A stretch of 46,389 nucleotides of DNA from a virus (lineage: Duplodnaviria; Heunggongvirae; Uroviricota; Caudoviricetes). Every line of letters starts with the position of its first letter. Within the stretch, counting starts at the first letter, position 1. Positions 30,511 to 40,698 of the stretch are shown here, one piece after another. Under the pieces are notes generated by a model, which worked only from the letters and a program-made list of their open reading frames with translations, ran no database searches and was not told the DNA's origin. The stretch lies in IMG/VR virus record IMGVR_UViG_2850808358_000009. One strand, given 5' to 3'. Position numbers and translations under genes: made by a program.

Positions 30511-30576
30511 ATTACAGGTTTACTTGTAATTACCTCACAGGCAACCTTGTTTGTCAAATACAGAAGTATCTGTAAT
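30511..30576. promoter_or_regulatory. Immunity operator region with two 20-bp near-palindromic operators and overlapping divergent promoters
   Basis: ATTACAGG-TTTA-CTTGTAAT (about 30511..30530) and AATACAGA-AGTA-TCTGTAAT (about 30557..30576); -35-like TTGTCA / TTGACA on opposite strands around 30551..30558; AAGGAG SD before the cI ATG. Confidence 0.55.
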
Positions 30577-30601
30577 CATCAATGACAGAAAAGGAGTCAA
30601 C

Positions 30602-31230
30602 ATGAATCTTGCCAACCGAGCTAAAAAACGCAGAACAGAACTAAACTTAACTCAGGTCGAAGTTGCGAAACGAGCGGGCATTAGCCAGCAGTCGATTGAA
30701 GCTATAGAGAATGGGAAAACACTTAAACCACGCAATCTTCTTGCTTTAGCGTCAGCTCTTGAATGCGATCCTAAATGGCTACTTCTTGGGGCGATGTTGT
30801 TACAGATTTCAACTACGGAGCCCGAAGGGTGCCTGTTCTAAGCTACGTACAAGCCGGGGCTTTCACAAGCGCTGAGCTACTTCGTGAAGAAGGCGATTTC
30901 GAATACATTCTCACCACGGCTGAGCTATCAGAAAGTTCATTTGCGCTACGTATACGTGGGGATTCAATGGAACCTGAATTTAAAGAGGGGGACATCGTTA
31001 TAATTGACACTGACGTATACCCTACTCCTGGTGAATTCGTTGCGGCATGTAACGGTAGCCACGAAGCAACGTTCAAAAAATACCGCCCGGTAGGGATTGG
31101 CGCTAAAGGTGAGGAAGACTTTGAACTTGTTCCATTGAATAGTGATTACCCTATTTGTCGCTCCTGGGAAAAACCAATTAAGATCATAGGGACAATGGTA
31201 GAACATCGCATATTCCGCAGAAAAAGATAA
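30602..31230 (+). pseudogene. CI-like repressor (HTH_XRE plus S24 LexA-type peptidase domain) interrupted by a frameshift between the domains
   Basis: ORF track has the HTH part (30551..30841) and the S24 part (30775..31230) in different frames overlapping by about 66 nt; the S24 part has the GDSMEP motif. Confidence 0.7.
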
Positions 31231-35317: not shown

Positions 35318-35392
35318 CCCTTCTTCATAGACGCCCGGTTACACGCCGGGTGTTTTTGCAAAGGGGATGACAACCTTTTGCAAAAGCATACA

Positions 35393-35501
35393 TTGACATC
35401 CGCGATAACCAATGGGTATATTCCGCTTCATGGTGCTCAAAACACCTTTTCTACTAGCGGAAACCGCGCCCGTCAGTCATGCGGATTTTTTATGTCCATG
35501 A
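35393..35501 (+). promoter_or_regulatory. Promoter (TTGACA-N18-TATATT), leaderless micro-ORF and hairpin plus T6, upstream of Bro-N paralog 1
   Basis: Near-consensus sigma-70 hexamers; ATG within a few nt of the predicted start site; 23-codon ORF (about 35430..35501); GCGG-aaa-CCGC and a second small hairpin before T6. Conserved in copy 2. Confidence 0.5.
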
Positions 35502-35643
35502 TATTGAGAATTCAATGGTCGGGCGTGCGGCTAATACAACACCCTTCCGAAGGGAAATACGCCCGCCGACTAGTAGCGGTTTTGAGCGCCCGACCACCCT
35601 CTCAAAAAGGGTAAATTCAAAATATCTACTAGGGCATAAAACC

Positions 35644-36417
35644 ATGAGTACCCAACTCGTATTCAAATCCCACATTCTCGAAACGATCGAACATAACGGC
35701 AAATCTTGGTTCACCGCTGCCACTCTGGCGACCGCGCTGGAATACTCACGAACGGACTCAGTCGCTCGTATTTATGACCGTAATCGGGATGAGTTTTCAG
35801 TTGAAATGACAACGACCGTCAAATTGACGGTCGTTAGGAAAACCGGCTCCGTCCAAATGAATAACCGCATTTTCTCTCTACGCGGTGCTCACCTGGTAGC
35901 GATGTTCGCAACAACGCCAGTAGCAAAAGAATTTCGCCGTTGGGTGCTTGATCTTATAGAGAAAGAAACCGCTATTCCGCAGTCCTCCACGGTACTGGCG
36001 CCGCACAGGGAGTGTCTGCCGAAAATGGTTTACCACCACAGTAGCAAATACAACCCGTACAGAGCCTACGCATGGAACGGAGAGAAGAACGTTTACGTCG
36101 GGTGCTATCCAACCGTGGATGAGGCTGTCGCTGCGCAGAAGGACTTTTACCGGAACGGCAGCACAAAGCGTATTCAGAAAGTGCAGACAGCAATCAATGA
36201 CGCAGAGAAGGAAATGTTCATCAACAATCTCCGCGCCATCTGTCATAACTTCCGGCGCATCAATGAAATCTGGCGCTCGCAGTTAATGCCTGCCCTCGAA
36301 AAAATGGATTCGAAACTGGTTTACCAGTTGCATGATCGTTTCAGCGACAGCATGTGTGCTCTGCCGACCATAGAAGACCGCATCGGCAGATATATTCCAC
36401 CCACTTTACCTCGTTAA
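35644..36417 (+). CDS. Bro-N domain protein (antirepressor-like), paralog 1
   Basis: 258 aa; N-terminal Bro-N-like region; C-terminal two-thirds nearly identical to 39654..40430; start moved to the internal ATG. Confidence 0.65.
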   Translation: MSTQLVFKSHILETIEHNGKSWFTAATLATALEYSRTDSVARIYDRNRDEFSVEMTTTVKLTVVRKTGSVQMNNRIFSLRGAHLVAMFATTPVAKEFRRWVLDLIEKETAIPQSSTVLAPHRECLPKMVYHHSSKYNPYRAYAWNGEKNVYVGCYPTVDEAVAAQKDFYRNGSTKRIQKVQTAINDAEKEMFINNLRAICHNFRRINEIWRSQLMPALEKMDSKLVYQLHDRFSDSMCALPTIEDRIGRYIPPTLPR

Positions 36418-36483
36418 TCATTCAATCCGCCCCTGCTCAGCCAGGGGCTTTTTGTCACCGTTTAGTCCACGGAGGACACTGTC

Positions 36484-39411
36484 TTGTCTGAAAACATTCT
36501 ATGGGGCGACCTGGAAACCTATTGCGAAATCCCTATTACGAACGGTACCCATGCGTATGCCGAAGGCGTTGAAGTGATGCTGTTCGCATGGGCTATCAAC
36601 GACGGGCCCGTAAACGTGTGGGATATCACTGCCGGTGGTGGTATTCCACACGGCTTATACGAAGCAATCGCAGCCCCTGAGACCCTGCTTTATTTTCATA
36701 ACTCTCACTTCGACCGCACCGTCCTGCGTTATGCAATGCCGCGACTGGCACCGCCAGTCGAACGTTGGCGCGACACAATGGTGCAGGCGCTGGCGCACGG
36801 CCTCCCGGGGTCTCTGGGGGAACTCTGCGAAATACTCGGCGTCCCGCAAGACAAAGCGAAGGACAAAGAAGGTAAAGCGCTGATCCAGCTGTTCTGTAAG
36901 CCACGCCCGAAAAACAGCAAACTGCGTCGGGCCACCAGTAAAACCCACCCAGAAGAATGGCGGCGCTTTGTTGCTTACGCCGGGCTGGATATCGAGGCAA
37001 TGCGCGAAGTCTATAAACGTCTGCCGAAGTGGAATTATCAGGGGACAGAACTGGCGCTCTGGCATCGTGATCAGCAGATCAACGACCGGGGCGTCTGCAT
37101 GGACATTCAACTCGCGCGCGCTGCGATCGAAGCGGTAGACCAGGAGCAAAAGCGCCTGGCAAAGCGTACACAGGAAATGACTGATGGCGAAGTGCAGGCA
37201 GCCACACAACGGGACGCGTTGATTAAGCACATCGTTGAATCCTACGGTGTGGAGCTACCAGACATGCAACGCAGTACCCTGGAACGTCGTATAGCCGACC
37301 CCGATTTACCATCTGCCGTGAAAGAACTGCTGGCTATCCGCCAGCAAGCCAGTACTACCAGCACCAGTAAATACAAGGCACTGATGAAAGGCGTAAGCCA
37401 CGACGGGCGCTTACGCGGTACGCTACAGTTCTGCGGGGCGTCACGTACCGGGCGCTGGGCCGGACGGCTATTCCAGCCCCAGAATCTTCCCCGCCCTTCA
37501 CTAAAACAGGAACAAATAGACGAAGGCATCGAAGCACTGAAAGCCGGATGTGCAGACCTGCTGTTTGACAATATCATGGAACTAACCAGTTCAGCGTTAC
37601 GTGGCTGCATTATCGCGCCAACAGGTAAAAAACTGGTGGTAAGTGACTTGTCGAACATTGAAGGCCGTATGCTGGCATGGCTGGCGGGAGAAGAATGGAA
37701 ACTGAATGCATTCAGAGAGTACGACGCCGGAACGGGTCCGGACTTATATAAACTGGCGTATGCAAAAGCTTACGGAATTGAAGTTGAGCGCGTCACCAAA
37801 GACCAGCGCCAGATAGGTAAAGTGCTGGAATTGGCTTGCATAGCTCCGGATACTTTAGTGCTCACCGATAAAGGCTATAAGCCGCTTGTTAGTATTTCGG
37901 GCGCGGATTTGTTATGGGACGGAGAAGAATGGGTAAAACACGAAGGACTGATTTACAGGGGGTACAAAGCCTTAATATCACTGGACGGAGCAAAAATGAC
38001 CCCGGATCACCAGGTGCTAACCCCTACTGGATGGAAGCTGGCAAACCTTATCGCTTTAAACAAAAATACGCTTCACCAAAGCCTGGAACTTGCTTCGGAG
38101 AACTTACCGTTATCAAAGAACTGGAAAAAGTACCCGGAAAAGACCGAAGGATACTTGTCAAATGCAAATGTGGTGCAATGCCTCACACCGCAACAATCAG
38201 CAATCTCCTTAAAGGGAAAAGTACCCGATGTAACATTTGCGCAAAGAAAAAGCATAACGAGTATCGTAAAAAATTCTTATGCTATGCGGATGCTATTGCA
38301 GATGACGAAACCCGTCGCAGGCTACTTAACCGATTGTCTGCCGCAATCAGCCGTTGCCATAAACCCACCAACAGGTTGTTTCACAACTACGGCGGTCGGG
38401 GGATCTACGTTTGTCAGCTATGGCAGGAAGATAAAAGAGCTTTTTTGCTACACGTCAGGGAAATCAAAGGGTTTAATGACCCAAAGTTGGAAATGGATCG
38501 CATCGACAATAACAAAGGCTACGAACCGGGTAATATCCAGTTCGTCTCCAAAGCAGACAATAACCGCAACAGAAGAAAAATCGCAGACCTGCAAAAGCGT
38601 ATCGACGAGCTGGAGCGATGTTTACGACATTGCACATGCGGGGCCTCGAAACAGATTCACGATTAAAACCGACTCAGGACATTTAATCGTTCACAACTGC
38701 GGGTACGGTGGTGGTGTGTCGGCCTTCATCACTTTTGCACTGGTTTACAGTCTCGATCTCGACGAGCTGGCGAACGCCGCACTGCCAAACATTCCCCGCG
38801 ATGTTATCCGCGAGGCGAAAAGCTGGTACTACGAATCGGTTAAACGTAAGTCAACCTACGGCCTTTCTGAACGGGTATTTATCGCCTGCGACTCACTTAA
38901 ACGTCTCTGGCGCAGGGCGCACCCGGCGACCTGCGATTTCTGGTACGAACTGGAGCGCACCGTCCGCACTGCAATCGCCACACCGCAAAAAACATTGTAT
39001 TGCGGTTATCTTAAAATCCGCCGCGATGGCGCGTGGCTGCGCATACAGCTACCATCCGGACGCGCGGTATGCTACCCGTCTCCGGTTATCGAAAAAGGGA
39101 ATATCACCTACATGGGTGTTAACTCTTATTCGCGTAAATGGCAACGACTCAAAACCTACGGCGGAAAGCTGGTAGAGAACGTCACCCAGGCGGCCGCCCG
39201 CGACGTTCTGGCCGGAAACATGCCGCTTATCGAAGATGCCGGTTACAGCATTGTGCTGACGGTACACGATGAAATTATAAGTGAGGCCCCTGACTCACCC
39301 GATTACTCAGCAGAACATGTCAGCCAGTTACTGGCAACCGTTCCTGACTGGGCCACGAGCATTCCACTAAACGCCGGAGGATTCGAATCTTACAGATACC
39401 GGAAAGATTGA
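36484..39411 (+). CDS. Family A DNA polymerase (3'-5' exonuclease plus polymerase domains) containing an intein
   Basis: 975 aa single ORF, TTG start after a GGAGG SD; DLET exonuclease motif near the N-terminus; after removing 37837..38697 the junction reads [21 protein letters not shown], which fits PolA motif B. Confidence 0.75.
37837..38697 (+). other. Intein within polymerase motif B (Cys-initiated, ends His-Asn, next extein residue Cys)
   Basis: Starts [17 protein letters not shown] with a TPDHQVLT block-B-like motif; ends [27 protein letters not shown] followed by C; 287 codons in the polymerase frame. Confidence 0.7.
37914..38666 (+). CDS. HNH-type homing endonuclease in the -1 frame relative to the polymerase, nested inside the intein
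   Basis: Zinc-binding FGELTVIKE...CKCG...CNICAKK region and an HNH-like motif [27 protein letters not shown]. The protein-like part spans roughly 38073..38613; true start unknown. Confidence 0.6.
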
Positions 39412-39531
39412 CATCCGCGATGACCAATAGGTATATTCCGCTTCATGGTGCTGAACACACCTATACAAGCGGAAACCGCGCCCGTCAGTCATGCGGATTT
39501 TTTATGTCCATTTTCAGATATGGTCGGGTAG
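39408..39531 (+). promoter_or_regulatory. Second copy of the promoter / leaderless micro-ORF / terminator element, upstream of Bro-N paralog 2
   Basis: Same TTGACA-N18-TATATT and hairpin plus T6. The polymerase stop codon TGA lies inside the -35 hexamer. Micro-ORF about 39445..39531 (28 codons) differs from copy 1 by a frame-preserving 3-nt indel. Confidence 0.5.
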
Positions 39532-39653
39532 CGCGTATACCGAAAAACAGCCGAAAGGCTAAGGATACGGGCCGTTCTTGTATGCGGTGTTCAAGTACCT
39601 GACCGCCCTGCTGAACACAGGGATTCTGAACAAAAATACAAGGACATAAAACT

Positions 39654-40430
39654 ATGAGTACTCAACCCGTATTCAAATCCCACGTTCTCGAAACGATCGA
39701 ACACAACGGTAAGCAGTGGTTCACCGCCGCGACTTTGGCTACTGCACTGGAATATTCGCGCGGCGATAAAATCACCCAGATATACAACCGCAACTCGGAT
39801 GAGTTTACTCCTTGCATGTCAATCAACCTCAAAATGAGGTTCAACGGGATCAACAATAGCTTACGAGAAAAAGATGTGCGTATTTTCTCCCTACGCGGTG
39901 CCCACCTGGTAGCGATGTTCGCAACAACGCCGGTAGCAAAAGAATTTCGCCGTTGGGTGCTTGATCTTATAGAGAAAGAAACCGCTATTCCGCAGTCCTC
40001 CACGGTACTGGCGCCGCACAGGGAGTGTCTGCCGAAGATGGTTTACCATCACCGGAGCAAATACAACCCGTACAGAGCCTACGCATGGAACGGAGAGAAA
40101 AGCGTTTACGTAGGGTGTTATCCATCCGTGGATGAGGCTGTCGCTGCCCAGGAACGCTTCTACCGGAATGGCAGCACGAAACGCATTCAGAAAGCACAGA
40201 CCGGAATCAGTGACGCAGAAAAGGAAATGTTCATCAACAATCTCCGCGCCGTCTGTCATAACTTCCGACGTATTAATGAAATCTGGCGAGCGCAGTTAAT
40301 GCCTGCTCTCGAAAAAATGGATTCGAAACTGGTCTACAAACTGCATGACCGCTTTAACGACAGCATGTGCATTCTGCCGACCATAGAAGACCGCATCGGC
40401 AGATATATTCCACCAGAGTTACCCCGTTAA
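39654..40430 (+). CDS. Bro-N domain protein (antirepressor-like), paralog 2
   Basis: 258 aa, highly similar to 35644..36417 outside a divergent segment after the Bro-N domain. Confidence 0.65.
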   Translation: MSTQPVFKSHVLETIEHNGKQWFTAATLATALEYSRGDKITQIYNRNSDEFTPCMSINLKMRFNGINNSLREKDVRIFSLRGAHLVAMFATTPVAKEFRRWVLDLIEKETAIPQSSTVLAPHRECLPKMVYHHRSKYNPYRAYAWNGEKSVYVGCYPSVDEAVAAQERFYRNGSTKRIQKAQTGISDAEKEMFINNLRAVCHNFRRINEIWRAQLMPALEKMDSKLVYKLHDRFNDSMCILPTIEDRIGRYIPPELPR

Positions 40431-40482
40431 TCCTTCAATTCGCCCCTGCTCAGTCAGGGGCTTTTTACAGGACTCGAAAGCT

Positions 40483-40698
40483 ATGTCATTTAAATATCGG
40501 GACAGCCCACTTTATTACCGGGCTGCGAGGGAGGCCTTGCGCCTTGAGCAGTCCGGCGAATATGACCGGGCAGCGAAGGCCTGGGCAAAAGCCAACCGCG
40601 AATCACATCACGAACTGAATCAGGAATGGAGTGAACGCAGATCTGATTTTTGCCTGATGCAGAATATGCGTGAAAAGCGTAAGGCGGTCGAAGAATGA
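40483..40698 (+). CDS. Small helical protein (ANR-like)
   Basis: 71 aa ORF; family assignment tentative. Confidence 0.4.
   Translation: MSFKYRDSPLYYRAAREALRLEQSGEYDRAAKAWAKANRESHHELNQEWSERRSDFCLMQNMREKRKAVEE

Follow-up and report, generated by a model that had tools for sequence, protein, structure and literature searches.

Two related transcription units flank the polymerase gene

The stretch of DNA analysed here, referred to as the window, is the 46,389-nucleotide (nt) IMG/VR virus record IMGVR_UViG_2850808358_000009 (Caudoviricetes). In this window a family-A DNA polymerase gene, PolA (36484..39411, plus strand; Pfam DNA_pol_A), is adjoined on either side by a cassette carrying a gene for a Bro-N protein. 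The gene of cassette A (35644..36417) encodes 257 amino acids (aa) and that of cassette B (39654..40430) encodes 258 aa. A first-pass annotation of the sequence had reported the two Bro-N genes, their position directly before and after PolA, and their similar ends with a diverged middle segment. These points were borne out by the open reading frames (ORFs) and Pfam matches, by the cassette and PolA coordinates, and by the mosaic identity seen in a global alignment. Its further statement, that each gene has its own copy of the promoter and leader, was correct for the promoter and the leader hairpin (~95% identity) but not for the central ~90 nt of the leader, which are diverged.

Cassette A (35391..36453) occupies the interval between the gene for a DUF2815 single-stranded DNA-binding protein and PolA, termed slot A, and cassette B (39406..40466) the interval between PolA and an ANR/PerC-like gene (40483-40698), termed slot B; all features of both cassettes lie on the plus strand. 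A repeat finder run on the window returned three collinear direct repeats with a spacing of ~4013 nt, namely 35392-35499 versus 39407-39511 (93-98% identity), 35627-35832 versus 39637-39842 (74%) and 35866-36165 versus 39879-40178 (93%). In the global alignment the homology runs precisely from the -35 hexamer (35393 / 39408) to the terminator T-run (36453 / 40466), and the repeated unit is therefore an entire transcription unit of ~1.06 kb. Beyond the promoter and leader hairpin, identity falls to ~45% over 35500-35625, rises to ~85% in the first ~80 nt of the ORF, is 63-70% over 35722-35865 and reaches 90.6% over 35866-36417, including a 104-nt identical block (35920-36023 / 39933-40036). The two proteins share 83% amino acid identity overall. 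Within the window there are exactly two copies each of the 35-nt leader hairpin and of a 41-nt promoter pattern, against an expectation of zero from shuffled sequences, and the repetition cannot be attributed to chance.

Cassette A begins with a sigma-70-type promoter (TTGACA-18 nt-TATATT, 35393..35422), which agrees with the consensus at 11 of 12 positions and is kept in related cassettes. It is followed by an upstream target region (35432..35457), by one or more leader hairpins ending in a U-run (35457..35491), which are identical in both cassettes and presumed to form a leader terminator, by an RNA of the sRNA-Xcc1 family (35517..35603), by a downstream target region including the Shine-Dalgarno sequence (35601..35634), by the Bro-N gene, and by an intrinsic terminator (36429..36453; a 7-pair stem, then a T-run). 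The same order is found in cassette B, with the promoter at 39408..39437 (again 11 of 12 consensus positions), the upstream sites and leader hairpin at 39447..39503 (hairpin plus U-run, 39469-39503), the sRNA-Xcc1-family RNA at 39522..39612, the downstream target region at 39613..39644 and the terminator at 40442..40466. Both 3' terminators were called by the terminator scan. The TGA stop codon of PolA (39409-39411) falls within the -35 hexamer TTGACA of cassette B (39408-39413).

Both leaders contain an sRNA-Xcc1-family RNA and sites complementary to it

Rfam models matched the window exactly twice at or above the gathering score, once in each leader and both times as sRNA-Xcc1 (RF02221). The scores were 70.3 bits for RNA A and 65.6 bits for RNA B (cutoff 53), over model positions 1-87 of 87, which places both small RNAs (sRNAs) in this family. 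The matches fall in the diverged part of the leaders, and the central 90 nt that differ between A and B nevertheless fit one RNA family model. Compensatory changes point to a conserved structure: among 34 distinct RNAs, a set pre-filtered for at most one mismatch in the closing stem, pairs 3, 8 and 9 of that stem vary as UA/CG/GC, CG/UA/AU and GC/AU, respectively. The structural evidence consists of the Rfam model alignments and these direct pair counts; a MAFFT and RNAalifold analysis of the sRNAs misaligned two length variants, gave a partial structure and was not relied on.

The 7-nt loop of hairpin 2 (b') is exactly complementary to a heptamer (b1) ~60-66 nt upstream in both cassettes, placed just 5' of the conserved hairpin plus U-run. 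The same heptamer recurs downstream as b2, over the Shine-Dalgarno sequence and ending 11 nt before the ATG, again in both cassettes. A single-stranded junction on the 3' side of hairpin 2 (a') is complementary to the elements a1 and a2 beside b1 and b2. In cassette A, the loop CUAGUAG (35570-35576) matches CUACUAG at b1 (35451-35457) and at b2 (35626-35632, overlapping the Shine-Dalgarno sequence AGGG at 35631-35634), and the junction GUUUUGAGC (35579-35587) matches a1, GCUCAAAAC (35435-35443, the loop of a GGUG/CACC hairpin), and a2 (CUCAAAA, 35601-35607, and UCAAAA, 35617-35622). In cassette B, the loop CUUGUAU (39577-39583) matches AUACAAG at b1 (39463-39469) and b2 (39636-39642, overlapping the Shine-Dalgarno sequence AGGA), and the junction GUGUUCA (39587-39593) matches a1 (UGAACAC, 39452-39458) and a2 (GAACAC, 39613-39618, and UGAACA, 39627-39632). 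The RNA and four or five external sites thus differ in a compensatory way between the two paralogs. For the Shine-Dalgarno target, the predicted duplexes of the cognate pairs had energies of -15.1 (A) and -20.0 (B) kcal/mol and those of the crossed pairs -6.2 and -9.0 kcal/mol, a predicted preference of 6-14 kcal/mol for the cognate partner.

In RefSeq, the slot-A Bro-N protein is annotated with 300 aa (WP_001343697.1; positions 4216-5118 of the related genome L002, equal to window 35515-36417). This model begins 2 nt before the sRNA-Xcc1 element and so translates through the RNA. The 257-aa ORF is favoured because of its conserved MSTQ start, the spacing of b2 and the Shine-Dalgarno sequence, and the closed upstream frame in cassette B, and the gene model is corrected here.

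The loop and both of its sites covary across related cassettes

Related cassettes were collected from IMG/VR by a pattern search for the conserved stem of hairpin 2 and the 3' strand, with the requirement that the 5' strand complete the closing stem; after addition of E. coli loci the set comprised 36 distinct cassettes, in the choice of which the flanking sites were not used. Loop-complementary sites of at least 7 nt were present both upstream (~-60) and downstream (~+25), at fixed distances, in 30 of the 36, and 20 different heptamers were represented. A cognate match of at least 7 nt was found in the cassette's own leader upstream in 84% and downstream in 80% of cases, compared with 1.5% and 1.2%, respectively, for non-cognate matches in the leaders of other cassettes. 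The b2 site is followed by AGGA, with a gap of 9-11 nt between b2 and the ATG in 28/36 cassettes. Five nucleotides make up the variable core, and pairing with the Shine-Dalgarno AG is provided by the conserved loop CU.

Other features of the leader were also conserved: a T-run of at least five lies ahead of the sRNA in all 36 cassettes, AU precedes the 5' G of the sRNA in 34, and a purine followed by CCC comes after the closing stem, likewise in 34. The last two are signals that fit the RNase P processing known for c4. A scan of genome contigs with the sRNA pattern yielded, among the rows passing the filter, only GC-rich chance matches, mostly from actinomycetes and none with paired b1/b2, and these were used as a negative control only. 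The exact 35-nt leader hairpin was found at only 8 loci in viral contigs. Two IMG/VR contigs carry two such genes ~4 kb apart, with leaders of the C4 type and the sRNA-Xcc1 type, and the RNA gates differ in every co-resident pair observed.

A purely cis-acting leader, such as a protein- or ligand-binding element, a thermosensor or an mRNA stabiliser that involves no antisense pairing, was considered as an explanation for the sRNA-Xcc1 elements. They are positioned as co-transcribed 5' leaders, no separate promoter was found for them in the promoter scan of the window, and Rfam lists the sRNA without a target. Such a leader would leave unexplained why a 7-nt loop and two external sites covary in 20 ways at fixed positions, as well as the parallel with the C4 modules described below, and this explanation is considered improbable.

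In a few related loci the gate is incomplete. The slot-B sRNA-Xcc1 elements of L002 (8223-8311) and L008 (5164-5249) have a1/b1 and lack a2/b2, and a new promoter comes after them, then isrK, C4 and Ant. The loop in L033 (3643-3729) no longer matches the site ahead of a truncated ORF. These orphan or mismatched gates are apparently recombination products or decaying cassettes.

PolA is constant and the slots around it vary

Eleven genomes, the window and the relatives L001-L010, were compared. The order DUF2800, DUF2815, slot A, PolA, slot B, ANR is common to all eleven. Slot A holds a Bro-N cassette in the window, L002-L004 and L007, an AntA/B gene in L005, a reverse-strand ORF in L001 and L006, and Nmad5 plus a small ORF in L008-L010. 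Slot B holds a Bro-N cassette in the window and L006, a TIR gene plus a Bro-N cassette in L005, an Ant gene in L002, L003 and L008, a TIR gene in L001 and a 67-aa ORF in L007 and L009; in L004 and L010 it is empty, and the PolA stop is followed after 5 nt by the ANR start. No Bro-N cassette is present in L009, L010 or phage 606R2, the last of which likewise keeps PolA and this gene order. In L004 and L010, with slot B empty, and in L009, PolA ends in TAA and also differs over its final ~40 nt, and it therefore appears that cassette B arrived together with a PolA 3' end.

The first-pass annotation had suggested that the repeats might have mediated insertion of the polymerase gene by homologous recombination. 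Direct repeats of ~1 kb do bracket PolA, and the 104-nt identical block would be long enough for RecA-dependent exchange. However, PolA is found with 94-100% protein identity and in the same gene order in relatives with neither, one or different cassettes, and recombination between direct repeats such as the 104-nt block would delete PolA rather than insert it. The empty slot B, with its 5-nt junction, also argues against insertion, as do the counts in 5426 complete E. coli genomes, of which 263 match the region, mostly via PolA, and only 14 have the Bro-N 3' module. The comparison with single-Bro-N relatives that had been proposed gave the same answer, as L004 (slot A only) and L006 (slot B only) both have PolA. 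That the repeats are footprints of polymerase insertion is therefore extremely improbable; PolA is the constant element and the cassettes are inserted cargo. They have their own promoter and terminator, lie between core genes, and are absent or replaced in relatives, as expected of phage morons. Both PolA-flanking junctions are cargo hot spots in a prophage family found in ~5% of complete E. coli genomes, which accounts for the position of the cassettes beside PolA.

The other suggestion was duplication of a regulatory cassette. Two copies of one kind of cassette are indeed present, with the same boundaries, a promoter and leader hairpin that are 93-98% identical, the 104-nt identical block, and a patch with 97% identity over 153 nt. 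A recent duplication within this genome, across PolA, followed by divergence of the middle segment, is nevertheless unlikely. The sRNA segments are only ~45% identical between the copies, and all target sites changed along with the loop, for which exchange of whole modules is a better fit than drift. In the 5' part of its ORF, cassette B matches the slot-B allele of L005 (LH50-c) at 90% identity, as opposed to 66% with copy A. For the 3' modules, the A/B identity of 91% falls within the range seen with alleles from other genomes (85-93%). In addition, the Bro-N allele in slot B of GF4 is 90% identical to that in slot A of STEC1590, and their leaders differ, with sRNA-Xcc1 in one and C4 in the other.

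The Bro-N 3' module was also found fused to Ant or AntA N-termini. The leader, the N-terminal module and the C-terminal module thus reassort independently. Recombinant variants, the absence of which had been named as evidence against a recombinational origin, are abundant, and they indicate module shuffling and not polymerase capture. As relatives always have PolA, the slots vary and the modules reassort, the cassettes are taken to be independently assorted mobile modules, drawn from a shared module pool, with at most a short conversion tract. Gene conversion was rejected as the main cause of the A/B similarity on the basis of segment-wise identities; the exception is the 153-nt patch with its 104 identical nucleotides, which hints at local conversion.

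The junctions around the replication genes carry various other cargo: TIR in L001 and L005, Nmad5 in L008-L010, and methyltransferases in different strains. Free-standing endonuclease genes were also noted, with HNH between DUF2800 and DUF2815 in L002, L004 and L006, and NUMOD4 in L007 and L008.

The control region has the architecture of c4 and isrK

The account of the P1 sites a1, b1, a2 and b2 and of RNase P processing used here draws in part on Rfam family descriptions and the papers cited below. The arrangement in the window corresponds to that of c4-type RNAs: a' and b' are complementary to a1/b1 upstream and to a2/b2 downstream, and the downstream site lies on the ribosome-binding site, where b2 ends in the AG of AGGA or AGGG, 9-11 nt before the ATG. 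In P1/P7 immI (c4, icd, ant; RF01695, RF03163, clan CL00128) a single promoter serves both the RNA and its target, as predicted for the window. As in the window, the RNA has a closing stem and two hairpins, and its b' loop and a' junction are complementary to sites on both sides. The b2 site lies on the ribosome-binding site of a gene leading to the antirepressor, in the window on that of a putative antirepressor gene, and specificity depends on only a few nucleotides, as is also predicted for the window. Translation of ant is blocked when c4 base-pairs around the ribosome-binding site, and this underlies the heteroimmunity of P1 and P7 (PMC12197685, PMC6906374). There are also differences. 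The window RNA belongs to another Rfam family, with a closing stem of 9 bp instead of ~17 and a longer hairpin 1; its b' pairs with five variable nucleotides and the AG of the Shine-Dalgarno sequence, not with GAGG itself. The regulated gene is of the Bro-N/AP2-like type, there is no icd-like ORF, and two modules are present per prophage.

In the sister prophages C4 modules sit in the very same slots. The RNA ahead of a slot gene there is sRNA-Xcc1, isrK together with C4, or the complete trio, and isrK/C4 occupy the same place ahead of Ant, AntA or Bro-N genes. Immediately 5' of C4, isrK overlaps the Rfam family c4-a1b1 ('a1, b1 targets of C4 antisense RNA'), and the upstream element in the window is analogous, with an a1 hairpin, b1, a hairpin and a U-run. 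When the same complementarity search was applied to the C4 modules of the relatives, a1 was located at -77, b1 at -60, a2 at +5 and b2 at +33 to +38 on the Shine-Dalgarno sequence, and compensatory differences also separate two C4 variants. The window cassettes thus share the control-region architecture of c4/isrK, except that another RNA family takes the place of c4.

In the Gifsy-1 isrK-orf45-anrP system (RF01394), a short promoter-proximal RNA, IsrK, ends at the leader terminator and the read-through transcript is the antirepressor mRNA; IsrK has complementarity to STnc1160, an RNA processed from further downstream, and acts in trans on the read-through form of its own transcript, controlling translation of the antirepressor AnrP (PMC4825925). 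The position of isrK corresponds to the a1-b1-hairpin-U-run segment of the window, which differs in having no isrK match, no orf45 and no translational coupling. The processed CI immunity RNA of P4 has complementary sites, seqA and seqC, on both sides of itself (PMC4825925), and resembles the window RNAs, for which processing is predicted, in this respect. P4 pairing terminates transcription of the replication genes early, whereas the downstream site in the window lies on the Shine-Dalgarno sequence. Compared with other phage morons, which are likewise promoter-gene-terminator units between core genes with alternative cargo in relatives, the cargo here has its own putative RNA translational lock and is present as two related units per genome.

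The sRNA-Xcc1 of Xanthomonas campestris, which shares its covariance model with the window RNAs, has been described as a trans-acting RNA that is controlled by HrpG/HrpX and linked to virulence, without a defined target. Members of the family have been reported upstream of the toxin gene symE in Xanthomonas integron cassettes (10.1101/2025.06.18.660453) and upstream of an ORF6N gene in APSE phages (10.1101/2020.03.17.996009). In X. fastidiosa Temecula1 five copies lie ~381 nt apart in one island (1,313,466-1,315,082), and in strain De Donno C4, isrK and sRNA-Xcc1 lie in a row (1,323,982-1,324,381); these RNAs were discussed there as vesicle-delivered effectors, and the phage-immunity reading was not considered (PMC12189769). 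The De Donno trio is the same as that in slot B of L002. In the literature searched on sRNA-Xcc1, virulence roles were discussed, and no link to c4 or to flanking target sites was found.

Most genes behind these RNAs encode proteins with antirepressor-type domains

The Bro-N domain (PF02498) was detected in protein A with 44.7 bits (E-value 2.1e-11, residues 13-103) and in protein B with 37.4 bits (3.9e-09, residues 13-104), above the cutoff of 25.6. PHROG anti-repressor families, which are the best PHROG matches, align over residues 1-111 with E-values down to 1.6e-30. Residues 127-170 form an AP2-like stretch that matches part of an HNH-endonuclease PHROG. The C-terminal module has no assigned function in Pfam, PHROG and NCBIfam searches, and NCBIfam gives the proteins no name. 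Among 24 distinct proteins encoded directly behind such RNAs, 22 have domains typical of antirepressors (Bro-N 10, Rha 5, AntA 5, ORF6N 1, KilA-N 1), and several of the 24 have P22_AR_C or ORF6C tails. In a Stx-converting phage the same leader precedes an annotated antirepressor. An antirepressor function for proteins A and B is therefore a reasonable inference.

Alternatively, the RNA gate may operate as described below while the Bro-N proteins are not antirepressors but have an accessory (moron) role, for example as toxins, regulators that bind DNA, or defence or anti-defence factors. This is a possibility of some weight, given that the slots hold TIR, Nmad5 and HNH genes in relatives, that sRNA-Xcc1 precedes the symE toxin gene in Xanthomonas, and that the AP2-like plus C-terminal module has no assigned function. 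It is judged doubtful in view of the domains of the 22 of 24 proteins, the PHROG matches, and the annotated Ant and AntA/B genes that follow this RNA or a sister RNA in the same slots, some of them with the same C-terminal module.

The 'microRNA' 24B_1 of the Stx phage Phi24B has been proposed as a repressor of an antirepressor gene. It was considered as a possible fragment of the RNA described here and was rejected, as its gene lies in the lom region, well away from d_ant.

A model for an RNA-gated antirepressor module

Taken together, each cassette is probably an autonomous, horizontally shuffled module of the P1 immI / Gifsy-1 isrK type, in which an RNA gates an antirepressor-like gene. In this model the strong sigma-70 promoter would drive transcription of the leader, in which a1 (in its hairpin loop) and b1 come first. 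The hairpin plus U-run would stop part of transcription, probably giving a short RNA of ~62 nt with a1/b1. Read-through transcripts would include the structured sRNA-Xcc1-family RNA of ~87 nt, the 5' end of which is probably cut by RNase P, followed by the second targets a2/b2, with b2 on the Bro-N Shine-Dalgarno sequence. Pairing of the b' loop and the a' junction with a2/b2, presumably in trans rather than in cis, would block Bro-N translation and keep the protein off in the lysogen. The upstream a1/b1 would compete for the same sRNA segment, as a decoy or activator like IsrK, or would serve termination control as in P4 CI. As the 5-nt specificity cores are different, each RNA should gate only its own gene.

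Several observations weigh against this model. The leader hairpin is weak (a short stem with a bulge or large loop), and together with its U-run it was not called by the terminator scan of the window. The covariance models for C4 (RF01695), isrK (RF01394) and c4-a1b1 (RF03163) gave no match to the window leaders at E-values up to 10; kinship with c4 is therefore drawn from architecture, and membership of clan CL00128 is not claimed. No icd-like or orf45-like leader ORF was found between the sRNA and the Bro-N gene, in which the window differs from P1 and Gifsy-1. Six of the 36 cassettes lack one of the two sites, and many of the 36 share descent, so that the cognate and non-cognate trials are not independent. 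The sequence is compatible with sRNA action in trans, in cis or both, the antirepressor role of the Bro-N/AP2-like architecture is likewise predicted from sequence, and other slot cargo (TIR, Nmad5) is not regulatory.

Under the proposed model of an RNA-gated antirepressor module, the twin cassettes apparently represent a known phage immunity switch present twice and do not record how the polymerase was acquired. An unexplained repeat becomes a readable device, and the leaders can be annotated with a promoter, putative decoy sites, a presumed leader terminator, an antisense RNA and a Shine-Dalgarno-proximal target. The model suggests a concrete mechanism and target for sRNA-Xcc1, which has until now been discussed as a virulence or cross-kingdom sRNA. 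The balance also tips slightly towards a broader proposal, based on the family members analysed from IMG/VR and E. coli: the whole sRNA-Xcc1 family might be a second lineage of c4/CI-type phage immunity RNAs, acting as a portable translational lock. Its programmable code of 5 nt would be present in triplicate, as the loop, the upstream decoy and the site near the Shine-Dalgarno sequence. Elements with two locks would then be selected for orthogonality, with each antirepressor forming an independent heteroimmune induction switch. The ~20 natural and probably orthogonal RNA-target pairs, which differ in five nucleotides, make heteroimmunity directly testable and are potential riboregulators.

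Other immunity genes and the PolA intein

A third antirepressor-type gene, of the Rha family (282 aa; 42037-42885, plus strand), lies in the window beside a divergent Arc-like repressor gene (41384-41737, minus strand). This pair resembles the protein-based control of P22 immI and is present alongside the two putatively RNA-gated modules. The CI/LexA-like repressor appears to be split into an HTH ORF (30551-30841, 96 aa) and a Peptidase_S24 ORF (30775-31230, 151 aa) in overlapping frames; the related phage 606R2 has a single repressor gene of 225 aa. The split may be a frameshift that separates DNA binding from RecA-dependent cleavage, or a sequencing error.

PolA contains an intein of 288 aa (37837-38700, plus strand), delimited by alignment with an intein-less allele. 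The insertion reads CIAPD...IVHN and is followed by C, where the intein-less allele has Leu, and thus has the N-terminal Cys, the C-terminal His-Asn and the +1 Cys of inteins; no intein profile in Pfam or NCBIfam matched it. Within the intein, an out-of-frame ORF of 250 aa (37914-38666, plus strand) matches an HNH PHROG (E-value 4.7e-37), and the PolA frame stays open through it; NCBIfam names neither the intein nor the HNH ORF. In a diverged homologue, L272 (833-3748; HNH 2269-2991), both frames are open again. The HNH frame is 65% identical to that of L272 at the amino acid level, with 53, 34 and 102 substitutions at codon positions 1, 2 and 3, and the PolA-frame translation of the same intein stretch is 37% identical. 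The HNH frame shows purifying selection, and the intein seems to hold a homing endonuclease encoded out of frame and overlapping it.

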